From assembly GCA_045106435.1 (NCBI GenBank), contig JBGCEN010000317.1, positions 776 to 64,775 on the forward strand: a stretch of DNA of 64,000 nucleotides. Reading direction: 5' to 3'. Under the pieces are notes generated by a model. It ran no database searches. It was not told the DNA's origin and saw only the letters and a program-made list of their open reading frames with translations. The position numbers and the translations under genes were made by a program. Numbering within the stretch: position 1 is the stretch's first letter; the number at the start of each line of letters is the position of its first letter. Below, piece by piece: positions 29,797 to 62,983 of this stretch. The DNA is from Rhodothermales bacterium (GTDB lineage: Bacteria > Bacteroidota > Rhodothermia > Rhodothermales > JAHQVL01).

Positions 29797-29883
29797 GCAC
29801 GATGCAAACATCAAATGTCCTGCTTGATATTCTGCATGGATAACTCGCATGAAAACCCTGCATTGGAATAATACGGTATAACC

Positions 29884-45330: not shown

Positions 45331-46566
45331 TTAATAGAGTGCTTTTTCTGGCAAATTCTTCACAACTGAATCGTACATTTTTGTCATTTCAGCCGCTTTT
45401 ATGGTCCAGTTATTACGCCTTGCAAATTCCAGCCCTGTTTTACTCATGCCGGATAGTTTTTCTGGATTTTCATGAAGCGATGTCAGCGCTTCTGCCAGTC
45501 TATTCATTGTTTCTTTCGGGTTAGATACCTTTACCCGAATACCTGCTTCATTCGGCACGAAGTCATGTGCTCCCTGATGATCAAGGGTCACTATGGCCAG
45601 ACCGTTACTCATTGCTTCCAGTAATTGCGAGCCAAATGAGTCTCTCAGACTTGTGAACAGAAATACTTCGTGTTCTTCATAAGCGGTTTGTACCTCATCC
45701 CAGGGTACACGTCCTTTCCACTCAACTTTTCCAGATAATCCTAATTCATTGATCCAATCATTAACAAAGGCGTCTTCCGGCCCGTCTCCTAGAATCGTCA
45801 TCTGGAAGGGGAAGTTAAGTTTAGCAACAACTTCCAGGGAAAACTTGATGGCCTTGCGTTCGAGCAGCCGGCCCACCCATAAAATATTCATCTTCTCATT
45901 TGAGAAGCCAGCCTTGGGTGCATCTGCAAAATAATGATCTGGAAGTCCAGTGTCCAGAAAAAGTTCAGAACGGATTGCACCCATTGTCTTTGCGATATTC
46001 AATGTGTCGCTATTTGTGGCCAGCAAGAGCGCTGTATGCTTGAGCATTCTCTTGGTAGCCGGCAAAGACGGCAGAAACTTCTCTGTAATATACGTGCGAA
46101 TAGACTCCTGGCGCCATCTTGTAGGAAAGTATTCCTTGAAGGCCTCCGGGGCTACCTGGCCGCCGCCGACAGGGCCAAAGATAAAGGGAATATTCAATTT
46201 CCAAAGCCACGAGCCACCAATAAGGCTTCCCCAGGTGACATGATGGGCAAGGTCGAACTTGTGTTCGTTTAGCAGTTCCTTGGCTTGCCGGTAGGCAGCC
46301 CGCTGCCATAAGAAGTAGTGTGCGTACACACCAAAAATGCCTTTCATCGCCGGCTTGTAGCGAGCCGGGATATCAACAAAAATAAAGCGCAGGTTGGGAA
46401 TGGGGTTCTCCCGCATTTCCTTTTCAACCGTTTCCCTCGCCCAGGTTCGCGTTACTACCCATACTTCATGCCCTTCCTTTGCCAGGTGTGTGGACCAGTT
46501 CCAGCCGAATCCTTCTTCGGAGCCGCGATGGGGTTCACAGGCATATGCGGATAGCAGTATGTTCAT
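45331..46566 (-). CDS. GT-B fold glycosyltransferase (GT4-like)
   Basis: N-terminal NILLSAYACEPHRGSEEGFGW and a C-terminal E-x7-E region (FGSQLLEAMSNGLAIVT). Confidence 0.8.
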   Translation of the reverse strand: MNILLSAYACEPHRGSEEGFGWNWSTHLAKEGHEVWVVTRTWARETVEKEMRENPIPNLRFIFVDIPARYKPAMKGIFGVYAHYFLWQRAAYRQAKELLNEHKFDLAHHVTWGSLIGGSWLWKLNIPFIFGPVGGGQVAPEAFKEYFPTRWRQESIRTYITEKFLPSLPATKRMLKHTALLLATNSDTLNIAKTMGAIRSELFLDTGLPDHYFADAPKAGFSNEKMNILWVGRLLERKAIKFSLEVVAKLNFPFQMTILGDGPEDAFVNDWINELGLSGKVEWKGRVPWDEVQTAYEEHEVFLFTSLRDSFGSQLLEAMSNGLAIVTLDHQGAHDFVPNEAGIRVKVSNPKETMNRLAEALTSLHENPEKLSGMSKTGLEFARRNNWTIKAAEMTKMYDSVVKNLPEKALY

Positions 46567-46684: not shown

Positions 46685-48766
46685 TCAATATCGTTTTCCT
46701 ACACAGGAATTATCAGCGGGCAGACACGTTAAGTATCCGGTTATTAACTGCAATATAAGCGATGCGTCAAATGCTGTTACAGATCCATCTCCTGATGCAT
46801 CAGCGTAGAGAGATCCATTTAAGTCGAGCAATCCGCTCGCGTGCTGGAGTATAAGCGAGGCATCGAGTGCGGTAACGACACCATTGCCCGATGCATCACC
46901 CGCAATTCCCGATGGGGGAGGATCTTCCATGCCAAAAGTAAACTGGTCTGCTCCCACATCGCCGGCCTGGACCGGGCGGGGTTCGCCATCAAAATCGACA
47001 AGCAAAGGAGCGAGATCACTCGGCAGGGAAACACCTTTTCCTATGATCTGGGACTCTGCAGCCAGACGCCAGCCACTCACGTGATCCGTGGTGTCAACCA
47101 CGTGGGGCTGTGCTGGTTGTATCGTCATTGAGTTATAATCTGTTAAGGCTTTATTTTGCCATTCGCTGAGACTGGAGCTTCGTACAACACTGCCGCCACT
47201 GGTTCCTTTTACGCGGTACTGAAACGTATTATACTCATGCGTACTGTAGTTTCTGTACCAGAATACATTGCCTTCTCCTTTATTCGAGCGTGCATCACTA
47301 TCATTGGCGTGCTCTTCAAAAGAAATTTCACTGCTTCTGCGATCACTATTCCAATCAATCAAGGTGTTGGCAATAAAGAGATTGTTATAGTATCGGTTTC
47401 CGGTTGCCTTATCCCGATCGTCTGCGCGAATACGCATGCCACCGCCTTCATTGCTCATAAAAGTATTATGAAGCACAATGTTATTATTGGCTGCATGAAT
47501 GAGCAACCCATGCCCGTAGAATGAACCCCAGGCATACCTGGCTCTTGTTAAAACATTGTTTCTTACGAGTGTGCGGTCTGTTGTCCATTCGAGGAAAAGA
47601 TTGGCACCAAGATTACTGTCAAAGGTATTTTGCTCAATGACATTGTCAAAGTTGTCCATATCAAGCCATAATCCGGGGCCTTCGTTTTCGGAAAAATCCA
47701 GATTACGAAAAGTACTGTTTGACGTATAAAGCCATTTGCCCCCACCTGACTCCCAAAATGGCTTATATCCTTTCCAGTTATTGTATTTGCTTTCTGAATA
47801 TTCGACAAGGCAGTTGTCGCAGATATTGCCTCGGATTCCGCTCATGCCATTGTGATTTGCACGAACGCCGCGGACAACATGGTTATTCCCGGAGATAAGA
47901 AATCCTGAGCCGTTGGTCCATTCAACAGTAATGTTTTCAAGGATAGATCCTTCGTTGCCGGCGCATACCGCACCCATCTGACCATCATTGGCTGTATGCC
48001 TGAAGGTAATGCCAATCACGTGATAGTATCCTTTGACATTGCCAAAACGACAGCTCGGTTCGTTGTTAGAAGGATTGAATAGATGATTGAGCAAACTGGT
48101 TTGCATGAGCGCGTTGTTCGGATTTTTGTTGCCGGGCAACATCGCGAACATCGTACTCGGATTATCTGGCGAACCCTCTAAAAAGAAGGTGCCTTCTTTT
48201 ACATCAGCTCTTGTGTAAACTGCCTGGAGCATCTGGTCATCTGCAATTAAAACATCACGTCTTCTCGCAGGCCCAAATAGATCATTGGGGCCCTCGAAGC
48301 GGTGCCATAAAGCTTCATGTGGCCAGGTTAATTTCCACGCGCTTCCATCTTGCGTCCAGGTACCTGTAAGATTGATTGCGCCAGACACAATAACCTCATC
48401 GCCCGGGAATGAGGTTATGGTAATTCTGTTACCAGATGTACCACCTTTACCTGGACTGACCTGGCCGTAGTATGTGCCTTCTCTAATAATCACGGCATCG
48501 CCGGGATTAATCGTGCTGGTTTCTACGGCACGCTGAATGGTTTTAAATGGTTGGGCTTCGTTACCCGGATTGGTATCATTGCCTATGGCCTGGTCAACCC
48601 AGTAGACCGTGTTGTTGCCAGTGTTCAGCAACGACCGAATGGGTTGGCAAGTGCCAGATGAAGAGCACAACATTCCTGGGCCGCAGTCTTGCTGCAAATA
48701 ACAGGCTTGTCCATGTGCTAATGACGTAATCGAGAAAAAAAGTAGGAGGCTTAATAAGGGTCTCAT
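46685..48766 (-). CDS. Secreted right-handed parallel beta-helix protein (pectate-lyase fold) with C-terminal tandem dockerin-like repeats
   Basis: Signal peptide (LLLFFSITSLAHG), a Cys-rich N-terminal module, and PbH1-like repeats (NNHVVRGVRANHNGMSGIRGN, FSENEGPGLWLD, NVIEQNTFDSN, RNNVLT). The C-terminus has GDASGNGVVTALDASLILQ / DASGDGSVTAFDASLILQ. Confidence 0.7.
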   Translation of the reverse strand: MRPLLSLLLFFSITSLAHGQACYLQQDCGPGMLCSSSGTCQPIRSLLNTGNNTVYWVDQAIGNDTNPGNEAQPFKTIQRAVETSTINPGDAVIIREGTYYGQVSPGKGGTSGNRITITSFPGDEVIVSGAINLTGTWTQDGSAWKLTWPHEALWHRFEGPNDLFGPARRRDVLIADDQMLQAVYTRADVKEGTFFLEGSPDNPSTMFAMLPGNKNPNNALMQTSLLNHLFNPSNNEPSCRFGNVKGYYHVIGITFRHTANDGQMGAVCAGNEGSILENITVEWTNGSGFLISGNNHVVRGVRANHNGMSGIRGNICDNCLVEYSESKYNNWKGYKPFWESGGGKWLYTSNSTFRNLDFSENEGPGLWLDMDNFDNVIEQNTFDSNLGANLFLEWTTDRTLVRNNVLTRARYAWGSFYGHGLLIHAANNNIVLHNTFMSNEGGGMRIRADDRDKATGNRYYNNLFIANTLIDWNSDRRSSEISFEEHANDSDARSNKGEGNVFWYRNYSTHEYNTFQYRVKGTSGGSVVRSSSLSEWQNKALTDYNSMTIQPAQPHVVDTTDHVSGWRLAAESQIIGKGVSLPSDLAPLLVDFDGEPRPVQAGDVGADQFTFGMEDPPPSGIAGDASGNGVVTALDASLILQHASGLLDLNGSLYADASGDGSVTAFDASLILQLITGYLTCLPADNSCVGKRY

Positions 48767-48954: not shown

Positions 48955-49944
48955 TTAGTGAATTTCTTCTGGGACAGGCTCTGATTCGCCTAATACTTCG
49001 GATTTGACCTTGGAGACACCGGCTTGAACAGCATTATTCCAGTCTGTCCGTTTGGATTTGAGATTCAACGTTTCGTTTGTCAAATTACGAATGCCGCCCA
49101 CGATAGAGTCTGCATTATTATCCACAAGGATGGCCCAGTCTCCAAAGAGCTTTTCTGACAAGGTGGAACGGGTGGCGATGAGCGGGGTGTCGGATGATAA
49201 AGCTTCACACGCGCCGGATTGTTGCGTGGCAACCATATTGGTTAACGCAATCGCTGCTGAGCTTGAACACAATGTTTCGTGGTATTCCTTGGTGCTCAAG
49301 AACCCGGTAAGGCGCAGATTTTCACAGGCTTCGAGGCGATGTCGTTGAGCAGCCGGCAGTTTTTTGGGATCAGCAGTTATGACAAAATTATAATCAGGTG
49401 TCCGTTCTATTGTATCGATGATCGCATCAATAGGCTCGTCCAGGTCAAAGGAGCAGACAAACAGAATCTGGTTCTTTTTCCGGGAAACCTCTTTGGATTC
49501 AATAAACTGAAGCGGATCTGCAACAACAATAAATGGCTTCTGGGGATAGGTTTTTCCAAAAAGCGTCAGAAATTCAGAATTGTGAACAATGATCGCTTTG
49601 GATTTTTCCATGATCGTTGAAAAAAACGGGAGCTTGTGCCAGTATGATTGAAAGATGCCGTTGTGCCCATCTACGATATATGGCGTGCCCAGTAGCAGCG
49701 GGGGAAGCGCTGCATAGTGAGGAGGAGCCTGCACAATTGTATACGATGGCTTCGTTTTGATCATATAAAAAACGGTAGCCATCAGCTTATAGAAGTAGTC
49801 GAATGGACGCAGGTATTTGCTTCGGAAAAGATGTGGGATGAATTTGATGTCTGCGTCAAATAGAGGGGCCAGCACCTCTGCGCGGCGTTGATACCCCTTC
49901 CATACAATATATAAACACCGTCCTTTTTGTTGTTTTTTACTCAT
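48955..49944 (-). CDS. Probable GT-B glycosyltransferase
   Basis: C-terminal donor-binding-like region (QQSGACEALSSDTPLIATRS) and its locus context. The N-terminal half is unrecognised. Confidence 0.5.
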   Translation of the reverse strand: MSKKQQKGRCLYIVWKGYQRRAEVLAPLFDADIKFIPHLFRSKYLRPFDYFYKLMATVFYMIKTKPSYTIVQAPPHYAALPPLLLGTPYIVDGHNGIFQSYWHKLPFFSTIMEKSKAIIVHNSEFLTLFGKTYPQKPFIVVADPLQFIESKEVSRKKNQILFVCSFDLDEPIDAIIDTIERTPDYNFVITADPKKLPAAQRHRLEACENLRLTGFLSTKEYHETLCSSSAAIALTNMVATQQSGACEALSSDTPLIATRSTLSEKLFGDWAILVDNNADSIVGGIRNLTNETLNLKSKRTDWNNAVQAGVSKVKSEVLGESEPVPEEIH

Positions 49945-50073: not shown

Positions 50074-50946
50074 TTATGAACTTGTGAGTTTTAATCTCTT
50101 CAAAAAATGAACCGTAATTCTAATCATGTCACAAGTAAGGAAGCTGATAAACTGAAAAGGTGATTTTGCCGTCTTGAGTGCGAAATAAAACCTGAATTTG
50201 AGCCAGAAGGAGGACCTAAAATCAAAAAAGTATCTGCGAATATCGCTTAGATGATACTCATCTTTGATATCAAACTCATACGTATTGTCTACATGGCTTC
50301 GTACGATTGCATCGTAAAAGACCACCTGTTTATATCCAAATTTTGACGCGCGTACGGGAAATTCTGTATCACCCCTGTGTTTAAAGCGGACCGCATCGTA
50401 CATGCCGGCGTCTTTGAAAACCTGAACGGGAGCGAGCATGCCGCGCCCGGTAAGTTGAGAAACTTCGAAAAATGAACCGTGCTCAAAATCGTCCAGGGAT
50501 TTTCCAACATTCAGAATCCGATCTTTGGCTGTAAACCAATTGGTCATCCTCCCGCCATCCCAAATGATATTGGGGTGCTTGATGTCAGCGACTATAGACC
50601 CAACAAGTGTTTTGGGATGATGATGGGCAAATCCTACGATCTTCTCGATGTAGTCGCTATCAAATTCCAGGTCATCATTGATGATTAAGACAAAGTCATC
50701 ATCGTTTGCTTTCTCGATAACATAAAGCAGTCCTTCGTTGGTACCGCCAGACCACCATAAATCCCCTGTTCCTCTGATCAAGGTGACATTGGGGTACAGA
50801 TTTTCGATCATATCGGACGTCCCATCTGTTGAGCCGTCGTCAATAATTACTACTTCGATATCTTTATATGTTTGATTTAACAAACACTTAAGGAATCTCC
50901 CGGTGAGTTCCTTTCTGTTATATACAGGTGTAACAACGTAAACCAT
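50074..50946 (-). CDS. Family 2 glycosyltransferase
   Basis: VVTPVYNRKELTGRFLKCLLNQTY..IEVVIIDDGSTDGT and a DxD-like NDD. Confidence 0.85.
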   Translation of the reverse strand: MVYVVTPVYNRKELTGRFLKCLLNQTYKDIEVVIIDDGSTDGTSDMIENLYPNVTLIRGTGDLWWSGGTNEGLLYVIEKANDDDFVLIINDDLEFDSDYIEKIVGFAHHHPKTLVGSIVADIKHPNIIWDGGRMTNWFTAKDRILNVGKSLDDFEHGSFFEVSQLTGRGMLAPVQVFKDAGMYDAVRFKHRGDTEFPVRASKFGYKQVVFYDAIVRSHVDNTYEFDIKDEYHLSDIRRYFFDFRSSFWLKFRFYFALKTAKSPFQFISFLTCDMIRITVHFLKRLKLTSS

Positions 50947-51008: not shown

Positions 51009-51911
51009 TTACGCGATGGGATGTAGCTCCTGGGGGCGGATTTTGGCTTTGATTGAAGACAAAACGAGTCTTACATAGGGTAACGAGCCAAAAACGGGCC
51101 AGAGTAGGCCGGCGTGCTTTTTCGAAAACAACATCCAGTCTGAAGGCGGCAAGCCTTTAGGGCCACTCATCTGTTTCCAGCGTTCTTTTAGCGGTAGAGA
51201 CGTATCCAGCCAACTCCCTTTTACAGGGTTTGTTGAACAAGTCCCGACAAAGCCAGGCGTTATCCATATGGATGCACCTTTGCTTCCTGCTTTTAATGCA
51301 TAATCAATGTCACCTATTGCATGGGAGTAGCCGGCATCCATGTTGCCAACCATACGGGCCACTTCATCTGGTATCAGCACACAATTTCCATGCATGACAT
51401 CACATTGCATTGCTTCATTTGTTGGCTCCACCAACTTGAAATGGAATGGATGCCACTTACTATCGCGAATCATCCCGCCATAGGTAAGTTTTGAAGAGAC
51501 CGGATCCTTAACAGAGCCCACGACAATCGAACGAGAATTATTCGACTCCTGAAGCTTTTGATGCGTCTCTACAAGTCGCATCACTGCATCGGGGGCCAGA
51601 TTCGTGTCATCATTCAACCATAGATAATAATCTGCGCCGGAAGACAATGCTGCTGCAAATGCGGTGCGCATGCCTTCATTCCAAAAGTATGAGCCATCTC
51701 CTTTGATGACCTCTGCTTCAGGGAAGCTTGCCTTTACTGCTTCTGAGGTGCCATCTGTACTGCCGTCATCGAGCAAAAAAGCACGAATGTCCAGTTGATC
51801 GGATCGTTGGGTAAACAGTGCAGATAAACACTGCATCGTCAAATCCTTTCGGTTATGAGAAGCAAGAATGGCGGCAATCCTAACGGATTTATTTTTCATC
51901 GATTTGTGCAC
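51009..51911 (-). CDS. Family 2 glycosyltransferase
   Basis: AILASHNRKDLTMQCLSAL...FLLDDGSTDGT and WLNDD. Confidence 0.8.
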   Translation of the reverse strand: MHKSMKNKSVRIAAILASHNRKDLTMQCLSALFTQRSDQLDIRAFLLDDGSTDGTSEAVKASFPEAEVIKGDGSYFWNEGMRTAFAAALSSGADYYLWLNDDTNLAPDAVMRLVETHQKLQESNNSRSIVVGSVKDPVSSKLTYGGMIRDSKWHPFHFKLVEPTNEAMQCDVMHGNCVLIPDEVARMVGNMDAGYSHAIGDIDYALKAGSKGASIWITPGFVGTCSTNPVKGSWLDTSLPLKERWKQMSGPKGLPPSDWMLFSKKHAGLLWPVFGSLPYVRLVLSSIKAKIRPQELHPIA

Positions 51912-52285: not shown

Positions 52286-53266
52286 CTAAAGATGCGGATG
52301 AATACGCTTCAGGCCAGGCAAGCGCTTGAGCTTGTCCTGGAAAAGCCTTAATTCTGCAATTTGGTAGATGAATCCGTAGGAAATCCGCATCATATCACCC
52401 CCCATTCGTTTTAACGAAAACGGTGTGGCTTTCAGGTCATCAAGCAACTCTTTTTGCTCATATCCAACTGTATACAGACGTTCCTTTCCTATCCATTTAA
52501 GGTACGATTTGCACCATGATTTTCGGATTGGATTTCTCAGAGAGCCTTTCCACTTGTTAAGCGGCTTATCGCTGATGCTTTTATAAGACTTTGTGCCCGT
52601 CGGGTCGCCCATGTCTCCTTGTAGATCGACACTTTGAAAGTCCTCAATCATTATCGATTGAAAGGGGAGGTCCAGGTATGCGCAGATCTTTTGCGTAGTT
52701 GTTTCCGGGTCTTTCAGGAGATCCTCGTAATTGACGCCGAGCACACGGTCTTTATTATCTGTGTATGCCTTCACCAGTTTGGCAAATCCTTCAAATAAAT
52801 CAACTTTGAAAAAGTAGAGATACCAATGACCTCTATGCCAGGTGTCTAGCATAGAGGCAATGATTGAAAGTGGATTTCTCCAGAGAAAGATGAACTTGGC
52901 ATCTGGAAATACTTCCATGATTTCTTCAACAACAAGATGGTATCGCGGCGTTTTGTCGAGGAAATACACTGCGCCTTTTTCCGCTCGCCGGTTGTACAGG
53001 TTTAGCGTGAAATCCTGTATTTCAGACAGAAACGCCGGCCGGCCTCCGTCGATGGAGGTGTAGAAGTCTTTGATGGCATCGACAACGGCATTTTGGTCGT
53101 AGTTGGTATAAATGCCTTCACTGCGCAGCGTGCTTAACATGGGGAGCAGCAACCAGGGCTCCGCGGCCGTATCTATCTTGTCGTGCTTGGCAAGAATACG
53201 CTGCAGCAGTGTAGAGCCGCTGCGTGGCAATGAAAAGAGAAATATGGGTGCGACAGATTCAGACAC
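52286..53266 (-). CDS. PAPS-dependent sulfotransferase (Sulfotransfer_3-like)
   Basis: 5'-PSB loop FSLPRSGSTLLQRIL and a 3'-PB-like FIFLWRNPLSIIAS. Its start abuts the wzx stop (53266/53267). Confidence 0.75.
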   Translation of the reverse strand: MSESVAPIFLFSLPRSGSTLLQRILAKHDKIDTAAEPWLLLPMLSTLRSEGIYTNYDQNAVVDAIKDFYTSIDGGRPAFLSEIQDFTLNLYNRRAEKGAVYFLDKTPRYHLVVEEIMEVFPDAKFIFLWRNPLSIIASMLDTWHRGHWYLYFFKVDLFEGFAKLVKAYTDNKDRVLGVNYEDLLKDPETTTQKICAYLDLPFQSIMIEDFQSVDLQGDMGDPTGTKSYKSISDKPLNKWKGSLRNPIRKSWCKSYLKWIGKERLYTVGYEQKELLDDLKATPFSLKRMGGDMMRISYGFIYQIAELRLFQDKLKRLPGLKRIHPHL

Positions 53267-54664
53267 TTAAGATGCTTTCTTGTTTTTAGGCCACCACAAC
53301 GCGAAACTTACAATTTTAAGTCGATACCAAACTACCATTGCAGCACCAATATTCCACAACAAGGTCGTAACAATCGTTGCAATGGCGGCTCCCTTGATGC
53401 CCATACTGGTGATCAGTATGCCATTGAGAACCAAATTGAGTAATGCACCGATAGCCATGATCTTTGCCGCATCCCGTTGATGGCCCGTCATATTTAAAAG
53501 CAATACAGCTGGGCCGGCGCAGGCATTGAAAATTTGACCGAAAATAAGGATTCTAAGCAGGGGAATAGGTTCAACATATTCAGCGCCGAAAAGTAAAGGC
53601 AAGAAGTCGGCAGCAAAATAGAGAATAAGTCCACCAATGATGGAAAGCGCGAACACTGCATTTGCGCCTAATGAAACGATGCGTTGTAATTCCTGACGCT
53701 TATTGTTTGCGTGTAAATCCGCTACAATAGGGTGGAGAATACCATTCATTGCCGTTAGGGCAATAACGATGGCTGCAGCTACTTGTGAGGCAATCCGGTA
53801 TACGCCAACCGCATCAGTGTTGAGCATAATGCCAAGCATTAAGCTGTCTGCCGAGATCAGAACATAGTTAAACCCTGATGTCAGCATCATGTCTTGCGAG
53901 GTACTAAACCACTCTTTTTTGTTGTATTCGGGCTGGGCAGTACCAACTTGCTTTGGGACGGCAGATTTGACGAGGTAGTAAGAAAGGAAAACTGCGCAGA
54001 TGGTGGCCGCCAGATTGATGAAAATCGCGAGTTCTGCGTGTAGGACAATGTCGCCGGCTTCTCTTGTAATGCGGCCTATATCTGTCCAGTAATATGTAAT
54101 GATCATCGCGATTGCGATCAGCGCCGGCCGCAGGGTGCGCATGGATAGCTGCGACAAAACAACGCGTTTCAAGCCATCTAGCATGCCTTCCTGGATCTCC
54201 AGACGTGCCACCAGGGGTAAAAAAAGCAGGGCAATTAACAGGCAGTTGTAAAAAGCGTCATCGCCGTATTTTGCGATGATATAGGAGCGGGAAAGGTAAA
54301 TAATGAGCCCAAAGCCCAGGGAGAGACCAATGGCAATTTTGAACGAGGTTCGCTGGCTGTATCTGACAAATCCATTGATCAATCCCCATTCTTTTTTTGA
54401 TCGATAGGAAGCTATATAGCGGATCGCAGACTTATTAAAACCATACCGTGCAATAATCAGGCACGTGCTCAGACAGGCAATAGCAAAGGAATAGGCTCCC
54501 CATTCTTGTTTACCAAGCAAACGGGTGAGCGCCATTGTGGAAGCGAAGATGACCAGTGTGGAGAGCATCTTGATCAAAAACCCGCCACCTGATCCACGAA
54601 TAAACTGGGCCAGATTGTCCTGTCCTTTTAAGCGCTCTATCCAGTTTTTCGAGTTACTTGACAT
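53267..54664 (-). CDS. wzx: Wzx-type oligosaccharide flippase (MOP superfamily polysaccharide biosynthesis protein)
   Basis: 465 aa with about 12-14 TM helices, and a typical Polysacc_synt topology and locus position. Confidence 0.8.
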   Translation of the reverse strand: MSSNSKNWIERLKGQDNLAQFIRGSGGGFLIKMLSTLVIFASTMALTRLLGKQEWGAYSFAIACLSTCLIIARYGFNKSAIRYIASYRSKKEWGLINGFVRYSQRTSFKIAIGLSLGFGLIIYLSRSYIIAKYGDDAFYNCLLIALLFLPLVARLEIQEGMLDGLKRVVLSQLSMRTLRPALIAIAMIITYYWTDIGRITREAGDIVLHAELAIFINLAATICAVFLSYYLVKSAVPKQVGTAQPEYNKKEWFSTSQDMMLTSGFNYVLISADSLMLGIMLNTDAVGVYRIASQVAAAIVIALTAMNGILHPIVADLHANNKRQELQRIVSLGANAVFALSIIGGLILYFAADFLPLLFGAEYVEPIPLLRILIFGQIFNACAGPAVLLLNMTGHQRDAAKIMAIGALLNLVLNGILITSMGIKGAAIATIVTTLLWNIGAAMVVWYRLKIVSFALWWPKNKKAS

Positions 54665-54923
54665 GGGAATGCTTCATCTCCTCTAGGTCGTAAAACCTAC
54701 TAATCAATACGCGCTGCACTAATAATAATCTTGAAAAGAAATGCTTTGCTTAATGAAATGAGTTATTAATTATTCAATGAGTTCTTCGTTCAATCCAGAG
54801 ACTATTTCAACCATACAACAGGTTGATATCAGCATTGAGATGCTATTTATATAAAAATAATCATCATTCTTACATCCCAAAACTTACAACCGAATACTGG
54901 CGACTGAAAACTGCAGTTAACCC

Positions 54924-55748
54924 CTAAACTTCCAATTCATTATATACGCCGGCGTAGCCCCATCTTTGCAATACGTCACCCAGTTTGTCTTCCAGAAGCT
55001 TGATGTTTTCATCAGAGAGCTCATTTCTCCATGAATCTACCTGGCCTTTGCGGAAGGTGTGCCGGCCTGGGCCAAATAGCTCATCTGCAACACCGGTTGA
55101 CTTCGACTCAGGAATTTCAAGCCATTGGCAGAGATTGCTTACCGTTTGCTCCTGGGATTCAATGGTGCCGCCTCCTTTGCTTCCCACAAGGTCCTCAAAA
55201 CGAATCTTTAATACCTGGTCAGAGGAAAGCCATCCATCGAGGGCAAGGCATCTGGTACGAAGTGGTTCGAGGTATGCTTTCTTAAACCGGTGTCCTTCCA
55301 GAACATACTGGAATTTCTGTTCTTCGCTTAGATCCTTGAATTCACTATGTAATACATGCTCTTTGAGTTTTGTCACATAGTGCACAAAAGAGACCAATAC
55401 AGCACGGGGATCACGGTGGACAACAATAGGGGCAATGCCATGCTCCAGAATTGCGTCCAATAAAGCTGTCGAATACCCAACGTGTGCTGTAAAAAAGGTG
55501 TTAGGTTTCCCTTTTTTTAGCCGGTTGCGAACAATGCGTTTGGATACCTCAACGGGCGTATCAATGCCCAGCAGGTACCCTTGCGAGAATGGATACCACG
55601 CCATTCTTCGGAATTTACTTAACATGCTCGGGCTAATCACTTGAGCAGAACCCAAATGGTCAAGCTCGGAATAACCCATGAGCTTGAGGCATTTGGCTGT
55701 CAGGTGTGTACCTGATTTAGGAAGGGAGTTAATAAAAGCTTTTCTCAT
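54924..55748 (-). CDS. PAPS-dependent sulfotransferase (Sulfotransfer_1-like)
   Basis: 5'-PSB loop SLPKSGTHLTAKCL and 3'-PB motif VVHRDPRAVLVSFVHY. Confidence 0.78.
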   Translation of the reverse strand: MRKAFINSLPKSGTHLTAKCLKLMGYSELDHLGSAQVISPSMLSKFRRMAWYPFSQGYLLGIDTPVEVSKRIVRNRLKKGKPNTFFTAHVGYSTALLDAILEHGIAPIVVHRDPRAVLVSFVHYVTKLKEHVLHSEFKDLSEEQKFQYVLEGHRFKKAYLEPLRTRCLALDGWLSSDQVLKIRFEDLVGSKGGGTIESQEQTVSNLCQWLEIPESKSTGVADELFGPGRHTFRKGQVDSWRNELSDENIKLLEDKLGDVLQRWGYAGVYNELEV

Positions 55749-55803
55749 AATATTATAATACTACACAATACTGATGGCCACGCAGTCAATATGTTGAATA
55801 TAC

Positions 55804-57246
55804 TTATGCATTATAGTGTGCATTCATAGCGCGCATGTATTGATGCATGGCTATTTTTTGTTCAGTATGGTTTAGGCTTATCGCCATGCCGAGCCCCACA
55901 AACATCCATGTAAATGGTTCGAAATCGTAAGCGATATAATAGGCCGATGAGCCCAGAATAATTACGAGTGCAAGCAGGCAAGTCATTTTATAGAATGGAT
56001 CAGCCGTCTCTTTATAGGTTCTTTTTAATCTAACATACATCTGAATAACAAAACCTAAATAGAGTAGCAGGCCGATGAGTCCAACTTGATATAGTAGCTG
56101 GACATATTGGTTATGGAGCATTTTAGTCACAATCAATCCGTTCGGCGCGCGCATCATGAAGTAATTTCCGAGGCCTTTGCCCTCGAGTAAATGCGCGCTT
56201 GATTGCTTAATGGCATCGAGCCAAATGAGATAACGCCAGTTTGCCGTCTCATCTTTGGTCGGATCTGTTAAGGCTACCAGGCGCTCTTCCATGAAGCCGA
56301 CCAGGTCCAGATCATCATAAAAAAAGTTGATCAAGAGGAGGGCTGTGAAAGCAGCCATCCCCATCTTCATCAGATTGCCCAGCTTTAAATGTCCCATGAG
56401 AAACAGCACAAACATCGATACCATGGCTGCAAGCCAGACGGACCTATGGCTAGCAATAACCGTGAGGGCCATCGATAGGGCAATGAGTGTGGCAAACCAA
56501 AAATTACCATACTTCCAGAATCCATAGCGCTGCATTAAGTAAATGCCAAGTGTACCCCAGACAAGGCCAAGTGAGCCATGCTGATACAGCCATTTTGCAT
56601 ACGCTGCAAATCTGAATTTATGTACGTAGCCGCCACGGAATAACCCAATGGCAATCATGATCATGGTCACCCATATCAGGACCTTGAACATTTTCCATTG
56701 CTCAGCCCGTGTAGCCGCAAAGATCACGATGTAAGGGATGATCAATATCTCCCTGAAATACGTTCTGAACTCACCCAGTGGGCTAACCAGACCAAACATG
56801 GAGGCTGATCTGGCGAGTTCAAAAATCATCCAGAGCATAAAGATACTCCAGATTGACATCTCCTTGAAGAATGCTCTTTTCGCCCTTGGATCGCCGATAA
56901 AGAGCTTTGCCATCATGGCGGACAACATGCTGAATAATATGGGGTCTCCATATAACATATCGATGCCGCCGCCAATATTTATCGATGGCTCTATGTATTT
57001 GGAATAGTCCCAAATGATCATTTCAACCATGACCTGGGTAGAGAATGCCCACAAGGCTATCATAAAAGAAGGATAGCGATAGGCAATCACAAAGAAGATA
57101 AGTGCAGCACACAGGCCATTCAGCAGGATGACGATTTTCTCGCCGCCGAACACAAGAATGGCAAAAAACAAAACGGCACCAATGCAGAGCGCAATGAGCT
57201 CTACCGGGCTCCATTTGCTTCCTATGTTTTCCAAAAGGCTGGACAT
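55804..57246 (-). CDS. wzy: O-antigen ligase/polymerase-family membrane protein (Wzy-like polymerase)
   Basis: 480 aa with about 10-12 TM helices and one larger loop. A+T-rich. The locus also has wzx and wzc. Confidence 0.7.
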   Translation of the reverse strand: MSSLLENIGSKWSPVELIALCIGAVLFFAILVFGGEKIVILLNGLCAALIFFVIAYRYPSFMIALWAFSTQVMVEMIIWDYSKYIEPSINIGGGIDMLYGDPILFSMLSAMMAKLFIGDPRAKRAFFKEMSIWSIFMLWMIFELARSASMFGLVSPLGEFRTYFREILIIPYIVIFAATRAEQWKMFKVLIWVTMIMIAIGLFRGGYVHKFRFAAYAKWLYQHGSLGLVWGTLGIYLMQRYGFWKYGNFWFATLIALSMALTVIASHRSVWLAAMVSMFVLFLMGHLKLGNLMKMGMAAFTALLLINFFYDDLDLVGFMEERLVALTDPTKDETANWRYLIWLDAIKQSSAHLLEGKGLGNYFMMRAPNGLIVTKMLHNQYVQLLYQVGLIGLLLYLGFVIQMYVRLKRTYKETADPFYKMTCLLALVIILGSSAYYIAYDFEPFTWMFVGLGMAISLNHTEQKIAMHQYMRAMNAHYNA

Positions 57247-57425: not shown

Positions 57426-60224
57426 TTATGCCAACGCTGATGTTTGGATAATAAGCGACACCGCCTTTACGTCTGAGTAGGCAGTGACCAAAAGCGGTGT
57501 TTGCGGCATTACGCTGTTTAGTCTCGTTAATGGCATCGTTCCGTCCAGACCTGTTCGCGTACCGCGGATCAGTTCACCGGACAGGGTACTAATTTGTACA
57601 TCCGCATCGGGTATTAACAATGTGGCTGGTAAGGCACTGGTTGGCCGGCGTCCTGTGTCTTTTGATGCAAGATAGAGCGCACTGCCTCCGCGTGGGTCCT
57701 CGTCTGGTGGATCTACCAGGTTTCGTATCGCGAGGCTCGTATTTGGATCCTCCAATTGCGGGTTAAATTCCATTTGGAGGAAATTCCAATAGAATACACC
57801 TTCTCTGCTTCTCAGGCTTGGTGACTCATAATCTGCATGATATAATGCGTAAACTCGCAACGTGCGCCCGTCATAGTCTTCCATGCGTTCGCCAAAGTCT
57901 TCTTTGGGAGAGCGCCCGGAGCCCCGGCCAATAGGGCCAAAGCAACATTCTGGAAGTCTGTGCTCTTTGTTTACCATTATACAGCCGTTGTGTACATCAC
58001 CGTAAACGGTTGTAATGCCTTCCCGACTACCTAACAGATTTAAGACGCGGTCGGAAGCTGCTTTAACCCAGCCGGCATAGTCTGCAACAACACGATCTCG
58101 CTGCTCGAATTTTTGTCCTGTTTCGCTGTTTGTTTTTACGCCAGACCAAATGGTATGCAGTCCGTTGATGCCTGTAACGCAGACCAGCGGAGAGGCGTCG
58201 GTTTTTATCTGCTGTTCAAGCCAGCTAAATTGTTCTTCGCCGAGGAGGGTGCGCGTAGGGTTGGCGCGGTCATAGGCGTTGTCAAGATGCCCCCAGCCTT
58301 CGTCATCCCAGATGCGCGTGTCTTGTGACGTTCGCCAGAGCCTGGCATCCATGATGTAGATGCTGAAATCCTTGGCCGGCATTCGCCATTTGCGCCAGTT
58401 TTTAGGGTTGGAAACAGCGTCGGGTGCTTCGTCACCAGAAATCAGGTGTTGCACAATCTGAAAATTACGACGCATGTACGCCGGATCCTGGCCTGTATTT
58501 TCTTCTTTTCTGACAATCAACTGCTCTGGGCCTTTTACGTCATCCATTCCGAAGTCGTGATCTCCGGGGTTTATAACATTCCAGTGCCGCATCATTTGCC
58601 AGCGCGTGGTCGGGCCGGCGATGGTTGTGTTGATTACTTTATAGGCATCGTCCGTGCTGGGTGGAGCAAACATGAGCTCCAGGTACCAGACATCATCTTC
58701 CCAAAGCATCACCTGGAAGTCATAAGATTCAAGGTGTTGAAAAGCGCGAGGAGTCGGTTGGTCGTGTACGTACCAGGACTGATATTCTTGCCAATCAGGT
58801 AAGTCGGGGTTGTTTTTGTGTATAGAATGGCAGCTCAGTCCACAAATTTTGTAAGGTGCAACCAACTGAGGCAAGCGGCCGATATATTGTCCGGTGCGGG
58901 GTACTTTCCCAATAAAACCCGTCCCCGGACCAACGCTATTTGAGCCTATGCGGAGATCTTCAGTTACGTCGACACCGTCTTTCCATACAGTATAATATAG
59001 GGTTCGGCTATCAGGCGGGTAGGGGAGTTGTGCATCTAGCACTGCCGTGTTGCGCCTGAAGTTGTTTGTTACAATAGGTGCAACTGCTGCTACAGGAACG
59101 TTTGCCCAACCTTCTGCAGGAAATTCCGTGTCGGAAATTCTTAGCGCAACTTCCTGTCCATGATTCCTGAATATTGAGATGAATTTGCATTGCCATCCCG
59201 CTGCAGTTTTGGTCAGCGTGTCTCCAAGGGGATAACACACTTGAAGCTCATTGGTTGGAACACTGAGTTGGAGGTTTTCGCCAGGATCAAGTGAGATGTT
59301 AGAAACCTCAAAGTCAATCAATCCTCTTGCTACGAGACCGAAATACCCGTTGGTATACAACATCCGATTGACGCGTGGCAACTGAATTGTATGCCAGTCA
59401 TCATCAATCTGCAGGATGGCAGAGATATCAGCGTACTGCTCATCGTCGCCGGCTACAAAAAGGGTAATCGATCCGATAGCGCCGGCTTTAAGCTTGCCAA
59501 AATTTAGCGCCGCATTTTCGTCAACTGGATTCAGGTCATCGGTGAGATGGCTGTAAAATCCAAAATTGGCGTCGTCTGAAACGAGCGCCATCCATGCGGC
59601 TTCTTTTGTGTTTTGACCGGGTAGCAGGGACTTGAGCAGCGAGACTTCCTGGCCGGTATTGCTCCCCGTCCAGCTTTCGTGCAGGCAGCTTGAGCCAAAA
59701 GCCAGGCCTAATACACCATATCCGGGCTGGGTTTGTAGTTCTTGTGCTTCAGACTGGTTTGCAGGCTTTGGTGCGTATTCTGGCAGGGCGAGAACCTTAA
59801 AATCAAAACGAATGGAGAAATTGCCAGAAAGCTGCCAGTCGCGCCGCCATATCATTCCAAAGGGTAAAGACGGATCACGATCTATGGGAATTTTTTGATC
59901 ACGATGGGTTTCATAATGCCAGGGAAACCAGTCGCCGGGCCTTTTGTCGCCTTCATTGGTGAGCCGTCGCCGCAACACATTGTTTTTGATTTCCCAGTAT
60001 CCAGGATTCATAGATTCCCATTCATTACCAATGGAAAATGAATCACTGCGTTCGAAATCATCAATGACAAAAGCACTGCTTCGGGCGGGGAGGCCCGGTG
60101 TGCCAGTGTTCGACGATGGTTGTGTGCATGACGAAACAATGGCGCCACCGCCAAGGCTGGTGGCGCCAATCATTCCCATACGCTGGAGAAAATTCCTGCG
60201 GGAAACAGGCTTCGATTTACTCAT
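57426..60224 (-). CDS. Tat-exported lipoprotein with a C-terminal PhoD-like metallophosphatase domain; the N-terminal approx. 450 aa are unknown
   Basis: Tat signal plus lipobox (SRRNFLQRMGMIGATSLGGGAIVSSC). PhoD-like motif series: NPGDHDFG, YIMDARLWRT, LLGEEQFSWLEQQI, VYGDVHNG. Confidence 0.5.
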   Translation of the reverse strand: MSKSKPVSRRNFLQRMGMIGATSLGGGAIVSSCTQPSSNTGTPGLPARSSAFVIDDFERSDSFSIGNEWESMNPGYWEIKNNVLRRRLTNEGDKRPGDWFPWHYETHRDQKIPIDRDPSLPFGMIWRRDWQLSGNFSIRFDFKVLALPEYAPKPANQSEAQELQTQPGYGVLGLAFGSSCLHESWTGSNTGQEVSLLKSLLPGQNTKEAAWMALVSDDANFGFYSHLTDDLNPVDENAALNFGKLKAGAIGSITLFVAGDDEQYADISAILQIDDDWHTIQLPRVNRMLYTNGYFGLVARGLIDFEVSNISLDPGENLQLSVPTNELQVCYPLGDTLTKTAAGWQCKFISIFRNHGQEVALRISDTEFPAEGWANVPVAAVAPIVTNNFRRNTAVLDAQLPYPPDSRTLYYTVWKDGVDVTEDLRIGSNSVGPGTGFIGKVPRTGQYIGRLPQLVAPYKICGLSCHSIHKNNPDLPDWQEYQSWYVHDQPTPRAFQHLESYDFQVMLWEDDVWYLELMFAPPSTDDAYKVINTTIAGPTTRWQMMRHWNVINPGDHDFGMDDVKGPEQLIVRKEENTGQDPAYMRRNFQIVQHLISGDEAPDAVSNPKNWRKWRMPAKDFSIYIMDARLWRTSQDTRIWDDEGWGHLDNAYDRANPTRTLLGEEQFSWLEQQIKTDASPLVCVTGINGLHTIWSGVKTNSETGQKFEQRDRVVADYAGWVKAASDRVLNLLGSREGITTVYGDVHNGCIMVNKEHRLPECCFGPIGRGSGRSPKEDFGERMEDYDGRTLRVYALYHADYESPSLRSREGVFYWNFLQMEFNPQLEDPNTSLAIRNLVDPPDEDPRGGSALYLASKDTGRRPTSALPATLLIPDADVQISTLSGELIRGTRTGLDGTMPLTRLNSVMPQTPLLVTAYSDVKAVSLIIQTSALA

Positions 60225-60243: not shown

Positions 60244-61317
60244 TCAGGCAGGGTGATTTTCTTTGAGTGTCAGTTCTGCCTTTGCGGTAGCAAGGTCGGC
60301 TGCAACCATTTCGGCAACCATTTCTGCGAGGCTGCACTTGGGTGTCCAGTTCAATATCTCGCGTGCTTTTGCGGCATCTCCCAGGAGAAGTTCTACCTCG
60401 GTTGGGCGATAGTAGCGTGGATCTACAGCCACCAGCTCTTCGCCGGTATCTTTCCTGTATCCTTTTTCTTCTTCATTCTTGCCTTCCCATGCAACTTCGA
60501 TCCCTACGGAATTGAATGCTGCGTTACAGAAATCTCGTACCGTTGTGGTTTCACCGGTTGCAAGGACAAAATCTTCAGGCTTGTCTTGCTGTAGCATTAA
60601 CCACATGCCTTCAACATAGTCGCGCGCATGTCCCCAGTCTCTCTTTGCGTCGAGATTGCCAAGGAATAGTTTGTCCTGCAGGCCAATGCTGATACGTGCT
60701 GCAGCACGGGTAATTTTTCTTGTCACAAAAGTCTCGCCACGGCGCGGGCTTTCGTGGTTGAATAGGATACCATTGCAAGCATACATATTGTATGCTTCAC
60801 GATAGTTAACAGTGATCCAGTATCCGTAAAGTTTGGCTACGGCATACGGGCTTCTTGGATAGAAGGGGGTAGTTTCGCTCTGAGGAATTTCCTGGACTTT
60901 ACCGTAAAGCTCTGATGTTGAAGCCTGGTAGAATCGCGTTTTTTCCTGCAGTCCGAGAATGCGAATGGCTTCAAGTAAGCGAAGAGTACCCAGTCCATCG
61001 GTATTTGCTGTATACTCAGGTGTTTCAAAACTGACCTGCACGTGGCTTTGTGCAGCCAGGTTGTAAATCTCGTCGGGCTGTACTTCCTGGACAATACGGA
61101 TAAGATTCGTAGAGTCGGTCAGGTCGCCGTAGTGCAATTTGAATCGGGCACCGCTGTTGTGCGGATCTTCATAGATGTGATCAATCCGTTGTGTGTTAAA
61201 AGAACTTGCTCTTCTTTTAATCCCGTGGACTTCATATCCTTTTGCAAGCAAGAGCTCAGCTAGATAGGCTCCATCCTGACCCGTGACACCGGTGATTAAT
61301 GCGCGCCGATTTTCCAT
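60244..61317 (-). CDS. gmd: GDP-mannose 4,6-dehydratase
   Basis: [56 protein letters not shown] and [19 protein letters not shown] give a near-canonical Gmd. Confidence 0.95.
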
Positions 61318-61439: not shown

Positions 61440-62417
61440 TTACGAGGTGGCTAAATAGTTATCGCAAAACCACTCGTGTGACATTCTGATACCATCTTCA
61501 AGAGACGTTTTTGCCGTCCATCCAAGTTTTTCCATTCTGGATACATCCATCAATTTTCGAGGTGTGCCGTCTGGCTTGGATGCGTCGTAAATTATTTCGC
61601 TTTTGCTATTGAGAATTGATCTGATAAGCTCAGCAAGTCCACGAATGCTAATGTCTTTGCCGGCCCCTACATTCAGAATGCCATCAGGGGCAATGCTGAA
61701 GATGGCCTCTGAAGATTGCTCCATGGCAAACACACAAGCGTCTGCCATGTCATCTACATACAAAAACTCACGCAAGGGTGTACCGCTTCCCCATAGTGTA
61801 ACGGAAGCATCTGGCATGCCGTCTGTGCCTTTGGCTTCGTGGAATTTTCTGATGAGTGCCGGCAAAACATGACTCGTTTGAAGGTCAAAGTTGTCATGTG
61901 GGCCATATAGATTGGTTGGCATCACGCTGAAAAAGTCACTACCATACTGCTTTCTATAGGCTTCGCACATTTTGATGCCAGAGATTTTGGCAATGGCATA
62001 CCATTCATTTGTTGGCTCAAGCGGGCCTGTCAGCAAGCAATCCTCCCGTAGTGGCTGCTCCGCCAGTTTGGGGTAGATGCACGAACTGCCCAGAAAAAGC
62101 AGACGCTTCGTTTTTGCCTGATGTGCAGCGCGAATGACATTTGCCTGAATGGCTATGTTGTCGCTAATGAAATCTGCAGGATAAGTGTTGTTGGCATGAA
62201 TACCACCAACTTTGGCCGCTGCAAGAATCACGCACGCTGGTTTATATTCGTTGAAAAATGCTTCAACATCTGCCTGGCGAAGGAGATCTAGCTCCTGGCG
62301 TGTTCTAACGATAATATTTGTGTATCCACCAGCCGCTAATCTTCTGACAATGGCTGAGCCTACCAGACCACGATGGCCGGCAACAAAAATGGGTTCAGTT
62401 TTTCCTACTTGTGGCAT
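61440..62417 (-). CDS. fcl: GDP-L-fucose synthase (GDP-4-keto-6-deoxymannose 3,5-epimerase/4-reductase)
   Basis: IFVAGHRGLVGSAIVRRL, LGSSCIYPK, YAIAKI, NLYGPHDNF, and REFLYVDDMADA. Confidence 0.93.
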   Translation of the reverse strand: MPQVGKTEPIFVAGHRGLVGSAIVRRLAAGGYTNIIVRTRQELDLLRQADVEAFFNEYKPACVILAAAKVGGIHANNTYPADFISDNIAIQANVIRAAHQAKTKRLLFLGSSCIYPKLAEQPLREDCLLTGPLEPTNEWYAIAKISGIKMCEAYRKQYGSDFFSVMPTNLYGPHDNFDLQTSHVLPALIRKFHEAKGTDGMPDASVTLWGSGTPLREFLYVDDMADACVFAMEQSSEAIFSIAPDGILNVGAGKDISIRGLAELIRSILNSKSEIIYDASKPDGTPRKLMDVSRMEKLGWTAKTSLEDGIRMSHEWFCDNYLATS

Positions 62418-62422
62418 AAAAA

Positions 62423-62983
62423 TTAATTTCCAGAAGTTAGCCGTTCAACCAGCAATAATGTAGAGAGAAGAGGTCCAATGACGGTGAAAACATCCCGCCA
62501 ATTCATTTTCCGTTTCTGCTCAATGTCGATAATAACAATATCTCCTTCAGAGAGTGTCGGGGAATCCGCAGCGCGGTCCATGACCTCGCTAAAAGATGCT
62601 TCATATGCAAGCGATCGTGCACTGCCGGAATTCCGGTACATGCGAACTGTAACAGTTTCTTTTACATCCGGCTGGCTAAATATGCTTGGACCGCCGCCCA
62701 GTGCTAACAACAACGCGAGGTTTGACCCTTCTTCAAGAACATATACCCCTGGATTCTTGATTTTTCCAAAGGCTGAGATTTGAATGGTAGCAGAGCCAGG
62801 TTCGACGAGATAGTAAAACGCATCGATGTTTGTATCTGTATCCTCTATTCGGCCAAAGCGTGCTCCTGAATCAGGATTAGTGACCTGTGCGTGCGCAGTG
62901 TGAACGAATTGGAAGCATAATATAAGGCCAAGAGCGAGCACCCACCGGGCGCTCGCTCCTGAAGCTGGAGCAATAATAGACAT
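62423..62983 (-). CDS. Small secreted SLBB-domain protein (minimal polysaccharide-export/OPX-like component)
   Basis: Signal peptide (ALGLILCFQFVHTAHA). SLBB-like segments (ISAFGKIKNPGVYVLEEGSNLALLLALGGGP, LSEGDIVIID). Hydrophobic C-terminal helix. It sits between wzc and fcl. Confidence 0.5.
   Translation of the reverse strand: MSIIAPASGASARWVLALGLILCFQFVHTAHAQVTNPDSGARFGRIEDTDTNIDAFYYLVEPGSATIQISAFGKIKNPGVYVLEEGSNLALLLALGGGPSIFSQPDVKETVTVRMYRNSGSARSLAYEASFSEVMDRAADSPTLSEGDIVIIDIEQKRKMNWRDVFTVIGPLLSTLLLVERLTSGN

Follow-up and report, generated by a model that had tools for sequence, protein, structure and literature searches.

A Wzx/Wzy-type gene cluster of an uncultured Rhodothermales bacterium in which two dissimilar predicted sulfotransferases flank the flippase gene wzx

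The window analyzed here is a 64,000-nt stretch of DNA from a Rhodothermales bacterium (assembly GCA_045106435.1, contig JBGCEN010000317.1, positions 776-64,775, forward strand), and its source genome, labelled G000, is an uncultured metagenome-assembled genome (MAG) of 7.19 Mb and 93.7% completeness. The window carries a polysaccharide gene cluster in which two sulfotransferase genes, ST2 and ST1, stand on either side of the flippase gene wzx, and it is likely that this is a cluster for a sulfated exopolysaccharide or capsule, whose lipid-linked repeat unit would be sulfated by ST1 and ST2 before Wzx flips it. The exported polymer is very probably sulfated, because two unrelated sulfotransferase genes flank the flippase gene in the cluster, with fucose and glucuronate among its probable constituents. 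As to the order of events, the data are best read as sulfation of the lipid-linked repeat in the cytoplasm, followed by flipping. In the list of open reading frames (ORFs), ST2, wzx and ST1 are consecutive on the minus strand, as are all genes of 38301-64000, and the core consists of the following features, where PAPS is 3'-phosphoadenosine 5'-phosphosulfate, TPST is tyrosylprotein sulfotransferase and SULT is the cytosolic sulfotransferase type:

52286..53266, minus strand: ST1, predicted cytoplasmic PAPS-dependent sulfotransferase, 326 aa with a GTG start; Sulfotransfer_3; fold like TPST and the sulfotransferase (ST) domain of CurM
53264..53269, minus strand: wzx stop TAA and ST1 start GTG, a junction of termination-reinitiation type, from the sequence and the junctions in five relatives
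53267..54664, minus strand: wzx, MOP/PST-family repeat-unit flippase, 465 aa; Polysacc_synt 2.9e-20, Polysacc_synt_3 1.8e-13, MatE 1.3e-08
54665..54923, minus strand: spacer between ST2 and wzx, 259 nt, AT-rich, without an Rfam family
54924..55748, minus strand: ST2, predicted cytoplasmic PAPS-dependent sulfotransferase, 274 aa; Sulfotransfer_1; cytosolic-SULT-like fold

An initial annotation of this DNA had described wzx as bracketed by dissimilar sulfotransferases of 326 and 274 aa, neither with a signal peptide, and the ORF list and Pfam bear out the arrangement. Their dissimilarity is evident from BLASTP, which aligned ST1 and ST2 over a single 39-residue segment (28% identity, pairwise E 0.001). 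The missing signal peptides fit as well, in that the P-loops begin at residue 13 in ST1 and residue 9 in ST2, and a simple Kyte-Doolittle scan gave 0 transmembrane-like segments in each, versus 10 hydrophobic segments in wzx. Since both proteins lack a hydrophobic segment and have P-loops starting within the first 13 residues, they are predicted to be cytoplasmic.

The translation of ST1 contains LPRSGSTLLQRIL and WRNP, and matches Pfam Sulfotransfer_3 (E 8.6e-36, 124.7 bits vs a cut-off of 27) from residue 7 onward, so that the match covers the first beta-strand. The GTG at 53266 is the sole sensible start, because the next in-frame start (TTG, codon 13) would remove this strand. Across 31 aligned sequences, the 5'-phosphosulfate-binding loop (5'-PSB; L13-P-R-S-G-S-T19) is invariant at P14, R15, G17, S18 and T19 and aligns with the PRSGST loop of the CurM ST, while the 3'-phosphate-binding motif (3'-PB; W129-R130-N-P-L-S-I-I-A-S138) is invariant at R130 and S138. 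In the same alignment D104 and K105 of the segment D104-K105-T-P-R-Y-H110 are invariant, and so is E36, which aligns with the Glu in the 'PPELH' segment of the CurM ST, a residue reported to be the catalytic base of that enzyme. The closest PDB sequence match is the CurM ST domain (4gbm, E 1.4e-12), followed by the ST of olefin synthase (OLS) and by TPSTs. The AlphaFold model (pLDDT 85.6, pTM 0.85) was matched best by Foldseek to human TPST1 (5wrj_C, E 2.9e-10, TM 0.65/0.77), with further matches to TPST2, tick TPST, the OLS ST and the CurM ST at E about 1e-9 to 1e-10; 88 PDB chains were matched at E <= 0.001, and the best 39 of the 88 are all sulfotransferases or proteins of sulfotransferase fold, one of them a retinol dehydratase. 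ST1 also has a C-terminal extension of about 90 residues with conserved D291, G298, K312 and a terminal HPH motif. Anchoring of ST1 to the membrane through this tail was considered and rejected, given that there are no transmembrane-like segments and the tail falls outside the eight most amphipathic 18-residue windows. The family is large, as 3264 of the 4360 candidates that were scored reach E <= 0.001; the closest relatives (62-82% identity) come from Rhodothermales/Bacteroidota MAGs, and relatives at 47-50% identity come from cyanobacteria, Thiomargarita, Rubrobacter and Planctomycetota.

ST2, which contains LPKSGTHL and HRDPRAVLVS, matches Pfam Sulfotransfer_1 (E 6.8e-11, 42.5 bits vs a cut-off of 22), and the PDB sequence search reaches plant SOT18 alone (E 0.0027). 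Its H89, RDP and FRKG...W motifs align with the SULT motifs of Arabidopsis SOT18, H89 being at the position of the SULT catalytic His. Among 35 aligned sequences, P10, K11, G13 and T14, H89, R112-D113-P114-R115 and S120, and F232, R233 and G235 are invariant, and the family also has an invariant GxKGGG loop (G189-G194). The AlphaFold model (pLDDT 89.4, pTM 0.88) is best matched to SULT2A1 (2qp3, E 3.7e-08, TM 0.55), and also to SULT7A1 and SOT16, with TM about 0.55-0.59; among 109 PDB chains at E <= 0.001, the best 37 are all sulfotransferases, with cytosolic SULTs on top (E about 1e-7 to 1e-8). The ST2 family comprises 264 proteins at E <= 0.001 among 835 candidates scored. Family, conserved motifs and modelled fold thus support both ST1 and ST2 as genuine PAPS-type sulfotransferases. 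The initial annotation had identified their loops as the PAPS 5'-phosphosulfate and 3'-phosphate motifs, in agreement with the invariant positions, and the structure prediction that it had proposed returned a predicted sulfotransferase fold for both proteins.

Relatives were sought in 101 sampled genomes of the order, G000 included, and ST1 was matched at E <= 1e-40 in seven of them. Synteny was then assessed by tblastn of 19 window proteins against five relatives (G037, G052, G057, G066 and G091). A second genus, g3, shows the order ST2-wzx-ST1 in three genomes (G052, G066 and G091), which argues that the arrangement is non-random. G066 and G091 keep the full order from wzc/fcl/gmd through the PAPS synthase gene, and G052 keeps it from wzy onward. 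Identities to genus g3 are 64-66% for ST1 and 61-62% for ST2 but just 44-47% for wzx, with most other cluster genes at 56-81%. In G037, of the same genus as the window, the order is visible from wzx onward only, because its contig begins inside wzx. G057, which belongs to another family, keeps wzx-ST1 on a 5.4-kb contig.

The wzx/ST1 junction reads TCT TAA GTG TCT, with the wzx TAA at 53269-53267 and the ST1 GTG from 53266, in the same frame and with zero spacer. That the ST1 start directly abuts the wzx stop had already been pointed out, and the sequence confirms it; moreover, a junction of coupling type is kept in relatives. G037 has the TAA|GTG abutting as in the window, the ST1 GTG of G091 overlaps the wzx TGA by 2 nt, and in G052 and G066 the GTG lies 8 nt inside the wzx end, so that the GTG abuts or overlaps the wzx stop in four of the five relatives; in G057 there is a gap of 27-36 nt. 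A start on or against the preceding stop is the classic geometry of termination-reinitiation coupling, and we infer that wzx and ST1 are translationally coupled by reinitiation.

The 259-nt spacer between ST2 and wzx was considered as the site of a regulatory RNA or of a promoter, and this was rejected, as there was no Rfam match in the spacer or anywhere in 38000-64000, and sigma-70-like sites in 51800-57500 were at chance level (12 found vs 12.6 +/- 3.6 in shuffles, by a scan that misses Bacteroidota-type promoters). Terminator-like hairpins numbered 16 vs 5.9 +/- 2.6 in shuffles, the majority of them inside genes, and a weak hairpin is located at 54906-54887, immediately past the ST2 stop. 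On the other side of the core, the gap between ST1 and the next glycosyltransferase gene (51912-52285, 374 nt) has a sole ORF of 81 aa without a family; in genus g3 an additional gene of 329 aa occupies this place. The additional gene was considered as a third sulfotransferase and rejected, its match being just a weak one to DUF4915.

The surroundings of the ST1 family elsewhere were surveyed by a metagenome scan with the ST1 alignment, in which 80 loci were kept, 59 of them with an upstream ORF that is 150 aa or longer and ends no more than 700 nt away; two pairs of loci, L029/L030 and L025/L026, seem to be the same record entered twice, and L074 corresponds to the G057 contig. The upstream neighbour in these 59 loci is Wzx-like (Polysacc_synt/_3 or MatE) in 12, Wzy_C in 5, Sulfotransfer_1 in 7, Sulfotransfer_3 in 3, a glycosyltransferase in 8, a methyltransferase in 3, PMT_2 in 1, NKWYS in 1, a transposase in 2, and without a family in 17. 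The 12 Wzx-like neighbours include nine that share the strand of the ST1 homologue, five of them with a gap of 8 nt or less. In addition, an ST2-family gene, detected by a hidden Markov model of the ST2 alignment, is present in 9 of the 80 loci and is directly upstream on the same strand in 7. A family 2 glycosyltransferase (GT2) domain was found in 24 of 52 long ST1 relatives (572-2000 aa), and all eight GT2-bearing relatives that were re-scanned have separate GT2 and ST domains, in the orders GT2-ST, GT2-ST-GT2 and ST-...-GT2. A new observation is that ST1-family genes recur right behind Wzx genes and right behind ST2-family genes, and are often fused to GT2.

One such fusion, P0241, is encoded in the same genome (contig C206, L019 6321-9029, plus strand), where a single 902-aa ORF has GT2 at residues 17-235 and, in addition, one domain like ST2 and one like ST1; this combination is likewise new. 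The ST1-like domain is intact, keeps all motifs and is 33% identical to ST1 over its full length. The ST2-like domain is 28% identical to ST2 but has lost the residues that bind PAPS, with PKSGT changed to PGESDT, HRDPR to SDPR, and FRKG absent. The gene neighbours of P0241 encode an FkbM methyltransferase, a DegT aminotransferase, a GNAT protein, an epimerase and a hexapeptide acetyltransferase. Taken together, the neighbourhoods, the GT2 fusions and P0241 link ST1-family proteins with glycan assembly in the cytoplasm, with Wzx and with ST2-family proteins.

The cluster around the core spans about 27 kb and 19 genes of Wzx/Wzy type in one co-directional run from wzc to WbaP. An initiating phosphoglycosyltransferase, Wzx, Wzy and a polysaccharide co-polymerase (PCP) are all present in this single locus (WbaP, Polysacc_synt, Wzy_C, and Wzz plus tyrosine kinase), and its remaining genes, from the wzc end, are as follows:

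63052..64000, minus strand: C-terminal part of a Wzc-type PCP-2a tyrosine autokinase; TIGR01007 146.1 bits vs a cut-off of 108; the gene exits the window
62423..62983, minus strand: 186-aa ORF, possible small export component; SLBB E 0.0021, below cut-off; 47-49% identity in genus g3
61440..62417, minus strand: fcl, GDP-L-fucose synthase; NF047922 489.6 bits, slightly under the cut-off of 500
60244..61317, minus strand: gmd, GDP-mannose 4,6-dehydratase; TIGR01472 617.6 bits vs a cut-off of 415
57426..60224, minus strand: PhoD-like protein, 932 aa, with a twin-arginine/lipoprotein-like N-terminus; PhoD 3.4e-05, below cut-off
55804..57246, minus strand: wzy-type polymerase, 480 aa; Pfam Wzy_C 2.3e-12
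51009..51911, minus strand: GT2 glycosyltransferase; Pfam
50074..50946, minus strand: GT2 glycosyltransferase; Pfam
48955..49944, minus strand: GT1/GT4-like glycosyltransferase, weak; Glycos_transf_1 2.5e-05, below cut-off
46685..48766, minus strand: secreted right-handed beta-helix protein with a C-terminal dockerin; Beta_helix 7.4e-15, Dockerin_1 1.7e-08
45331..46566, minus strand: GT4 glycosyltransferase; family profile match
44425..45192, minus strand: WecG/TagA/CpsF-family glycosyltransferase; family profile match
42658..44379, minus strand: bifunctional ATP sulfurylase/adenosine 5'-phosphosulfate (APS) kinase, that is, PAPS synthase (Sat/CysC fusion); NF004040 886.7 bits vs a cut-off of 669
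41124..42488, minus strand: UDP-glucose 6-dehydrogenase (ugd); family profile match
40149..41099, minus strand: SDR nucleotide-sugar epimerase, dehydratase or decarboxylase; no equivalog model at its cut-off
38301..39758, minus strand: WbaP-type polyprenyl-phosphate hexose-1-phosphate transferase, initiating; TIGR03022 446.8 bits vs a cut-off of 403

Judged from these predicted functions, the cluster is a complete Wzx/Wzy assembly line with its own supply of GDP-fucose, UDP-glucuronate and PAPS. The open frame of wzc runs on to contig position 66187, where its N-terminal part has a Wzz domain (5e-09), and upstream of it, outside the window, about 1.7 kb of contig C317 (66188-67963) are without an ORF of at least 120 aa on either strand. 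The PhoD-like protein, whose Tat/lipobox reading comes from inspection of the translation, lies between gmd and wzy and is 59% identical at the same position in genus g3; it had no PDB sequence match, and its nearest Atlas clusters are of the 'alkaline phosphatase D family' (score 0.98; about 900 aa; Planctomycetota, Verrucomicrobiota and Acidobacteriota). The beta-helix/dockerin protein could be a glycanase or lyase that trims the chain, or an epimerase. Beyond the WbaP end, a hybrid histidine kinase/receiver/AraC-HTH protein (34539-36722, plus strand) and a PAS hybrid kinase (31484-33427, plus strand) are possible regulators. Farther away in the window are a PSCyt1/DUF1549/DUF1553 protein and a DUF1501 protein (26443-31329, plus strand), a pair typical of Planctomycetota, and a sulfatase gene (10843-12390, minus strand).

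The gene for the Sat/CysC fusion and ST1 are 8 kb apart and belong to one run of genes that all point the same way. APS_kinase and ATP-sulfurylase each had a single match in the 93.7%-complete assembly, in both cases this fusion, and contig C16 carries one CysH-type PAPS_reduct ORF. The idea of a dedicated PAPS synthase was weakened by its being the sole sulfate-activating enzyme found in the assembly and by the CysH-type gene. Other glycan loci of the genome also carry sulfotransferase-like genes. Contig C338 (L017 39-11493) has six sulfotransferase ORFs of 308-345 aa interleaved with GT4 genes within 12 kb, which suggests a second, more heavily sulfated glycan locus. On contig C329 (L020 7896-13459, minus strand), a 1054-aa gene for an outer-membrane polysaccharide export protein (OPX; Poly_export/SLBB), a 294-aa sulfotransferase-like gene and another wzx stand in a row, with 20 nt between the sulfotransferase stop and the wzx start. 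As well, a sulfotransferase gene on contig C498 (L023 596-3440) lies about 1 kb from a divergent flagellin gene.

A mechanism can be proposed from these parts. WbaP would start the repeat unit on undecaprenyl phosphate, and six glycosyltransferases would extend it on the cytoplasmic face, while the Sat/CysC fusion of the cluster itself would make PAPS. ST2 (SULT-like, with a His base) and ST1 (TPST/CurM-like, with a putative Glu base) might then each use PAPS to sulfate one hydroxyl of the lipid-linked oligosaccharide. The sulfated unit would be flipped by Wzx and polymerized by Wzy, and Wzc together with an outer-membrane exporter would secrete the polymer. Translation of ST1 by reinitiation at the wzx stop would, in addition, tie ST1 output to flippase output. 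PAPS is confined to the cytoplasm. In the synechan system of Synechocystis sp. PCC 6803, repeat units of the Wzx/Wzy pathway receive their modifications on the cytoplasmic side, ahead of flipping, according to excerpts of its description (PMC8205485). Because of both points, and because of the GT2 fusions and the Wzx, Wzy, glycosyltransferase and sulfotransferase neighbours of the ST1 family, the acceptor would be the undecaprenyl-diphosphate-linked repeat, sulfated at two distinct positions, and Wzx would have to handle a sulfated substrate.

Several observations weigh against this proposal. The ST2 query was without a match in G037 (97% complete, with its contig starting inside wzx) and in G057 (96% complete); therefore, ST1 and wzx can occur without ST2, or ST2 is unassembled there. 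The tail of ST1 is not notably amphipathic and so gives no sign of membrane association, and the nearest solved relatives of ST1 sulfate protein tyrosine or a polyketide intermediate rather than sugars. The cluster showed no clear OPX gene, the weak sub-threshold SLBB match of the 186-aa ORF being all there is. Moreover, the same PAPS synthase would have to supply other glycan loci with at least 13 more sulfotransferase-like ORFs; it is not demonstrably dedicated to this polymer and probably serves sulfur assimilation too.

One or both enzymes might sulfate another target, for instance a secreted protein at a tyrosine, a glycolipid, a nucleotide sugar or a glycan that is synthesized elsewhere in the genome, and be located here because of the PAPS supply alone. 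The closest solved relatives would agree with this, those of ST1 being TPSTs and the activating sulfotransferases of CurM/OLS and those of ST2 being small-molecule SULTs, as would the reliance of many other sulfotransferase loci on the PAPS synthase of the cluster. We nevertheless regard it as unlikely: ST1 and ST2 sit among wzy, wzx and glycosyltransferase genes in a position kept across two genera, the ST1 family is often fused to GT2, and among the 42 metagenome loci with a Pfam family for the upstream ORF, the ST1-family gene stands beside a Wzx, Wzy, glycosyltransferase or sulfotransferase gene in 35. Profile scans of the cluster proteins also found no candidate gene for a peptide or polyketide substrate.

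A bolder extension of repeat-unit sulfation before flipping is that the ST2 and ST1 types form a widespread two-enzyme module, possibly a heterodimer, which is docked on Wzx or stoichiometrically tied to it so that only fully sulfated units are flipped. Such a module is hinted at by the ST2-ST1 gene pair (7 of 80 loci), the tight Wzx-ST1 junctions, the P0241 fusion and the faster divergence of wzx than of ST1 and ST2, and we offer it as a speculation with a slim chance of being correct. P0241 can also be read in another way, since its degenerate ST2-like domain beside an intact ST1-like domain implies that an ST2-type fold can serve without catalysis. On that account just one enzyme of the cluster would be catalytic, and the other, most likely ST2, would be a non-enzymatic partner or specificity subunit, giving one sulfate per repeat. 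This is very unlikely, as K11, G13, T14, H89, R112, S120, R233 and G235 of ST2 are invariant in all 35 aligned relatives, which purifying selection on catalysis would give.

That wzx and ST1 are one gene, whose in-frame TAA is either read through to give a Wzx-sulfotransferase fusion or a product of sequencing error, is almost certainly wrong: although the two frames are contiguous with the TAA as sole separator, and a 777-aa database protein (P0244) bears Polysacc_synt_3 and sulfotransferase domains, the same-genus relative has an identical TAA|GTG junction, fusion is excluded in three relatives because their ST1 frame differs from the wzx frame, whose stop it overlaps, and the P0244 linker is Arg/Gly/Ala-rich, like an out-of-frame read of a GC-rich gene, so that P0244 is better evidence of adjacency.

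Cyanobacteria and marine bacteria are already known to have clusters of this kind, and the locus adds a sound new example to them; the closest known system is the synechan (xss) cluster. That cluster, on plasmid pSYSM, has two sulfotransferases of distinct subfamilies, XssA and XssE, and synechan contains rhamnose, mannose, galactose, glucose and sulfate at 1:1:1:5:2, i.e., about two sulfates per repeat, as given in parts of PMC8205485. Synechan is thus a precedent for two enzymes adding two sulfates. Like the window, xss has Wzx/Wzy, a WecG-type glycosyltransferase, several GT2/GT4 enzymes, a PCP and a priming sugar transferase, and one of its sulfotransferase genes adjoins wzy. Unlike the window, it is without a PAPS synthase, gmd/fcl/ugd, a PhoD-like protein and a beta-helix protein in the compared stretch of record NC_005229, its sulfotransferases do not flank wzx, and the phylum and the regulators differ. 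ST1 and ST2 were rejected as orthologues of XssA and XssE, with the best segments of ST1 at 18-22% identity (pairwise E 1e-08 to 3e-08) and ST2 aligning over a 29-residue C-terminal segment only.

The occurrence of PAPS-synthesis and sulfotransferase genes in one polysaccharide cluster is described as a hallmark of sulfated polysaccharide synthesis in passages of PMC11641403, and the window cluster has both, the Sat/CysC fusion and ST1/ST2, in one gene run. The same passages (PMC11641403) place a carbohydrate sulfotransferase gene of Vibrio sp. KMM 8419 near wzx in a putative O-antigen part, and cytoplasmic assembly and then flipping were also proposed by the authors; in contrast to the window, the characterised sulfated capsule of that strain is exported by an ABC transporter, and PAPS there comes from separate CysNDC proteins, which are second copies.

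Among characterized enzymes, the only NCBIfam model matched by ST1 is that of NoeE from Sinorhizobium fredii NGR234 (NF052394, E 3.3e-21), at 75.5 bits vs a cut-off of 500 and over the N-terminal PAPS-binding half (residues 6-143) alone; in tblastn, noeE on pNGR234a is 25% identical over 83% of ST1. NoeE is the Nod-factor fucose sulfotransferase, whose acceptor is a lipo-chitooligosaccharide and not the repeat unit of an exopolysaccharide. A link of ST1 to fucose through NoeE, in a cluster that also makes GDP-fucose, is taken as a lead only. TPST1/2 and CurM/OLS share with ST1 the PRSGST-type 5'-PSB loop, the DK(S/T)P segment and the aligned Glu, but their acceptors are peptides or an acyl-carrier-bound beta-hydroxy acid, and they differ from ST1 in its C-terminal extension and its glycan-assembly gene context. 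Similarly, the cytosolic SULTs (SULT2A1, SULT1A1 and SOT16/18) share with ST2 the PKSGT loop, the catalytic His, the RDPxxxxxS 3'-PB motif and FRKGxxxxW, whereas they act on small-molecule acceptors and are 13-19% identical to the shorter ST2.

A literature search combining Rhodothermales with sulfotransferase found nothing, and a Fourier-transform infrared band assigned to sulfate esters in the exopolysaccharide of Rhodothermus marinus is a hint (PMC9590192, in part). Sulfated polysaccharides are valued biomaterials, while their bacterial producers and carbohydrate sulfotransferases are poorly characterized. What the present analysis adds is modest: the coupling of Wzx and ST1 recurs, ST2 and ST1 are paired, GT2 and ST domains are fused, and a genome rich in sulfotransferases has a single source of PAPS. 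All sulfation in this genome, at no fewer than seven loci, appears to depend on the PAPS synthase of this cluster. Gene neighbourhoods and GT2 fusions mark ST1 and ST2 as members of two large, uncharacterized, glycan-modifying sulfotransferase families that are good biochemical targets, and the locus itself is a candidate for the full set of genes behind a sulfated fucose/uronic-acid polymer in Rhodothermales.

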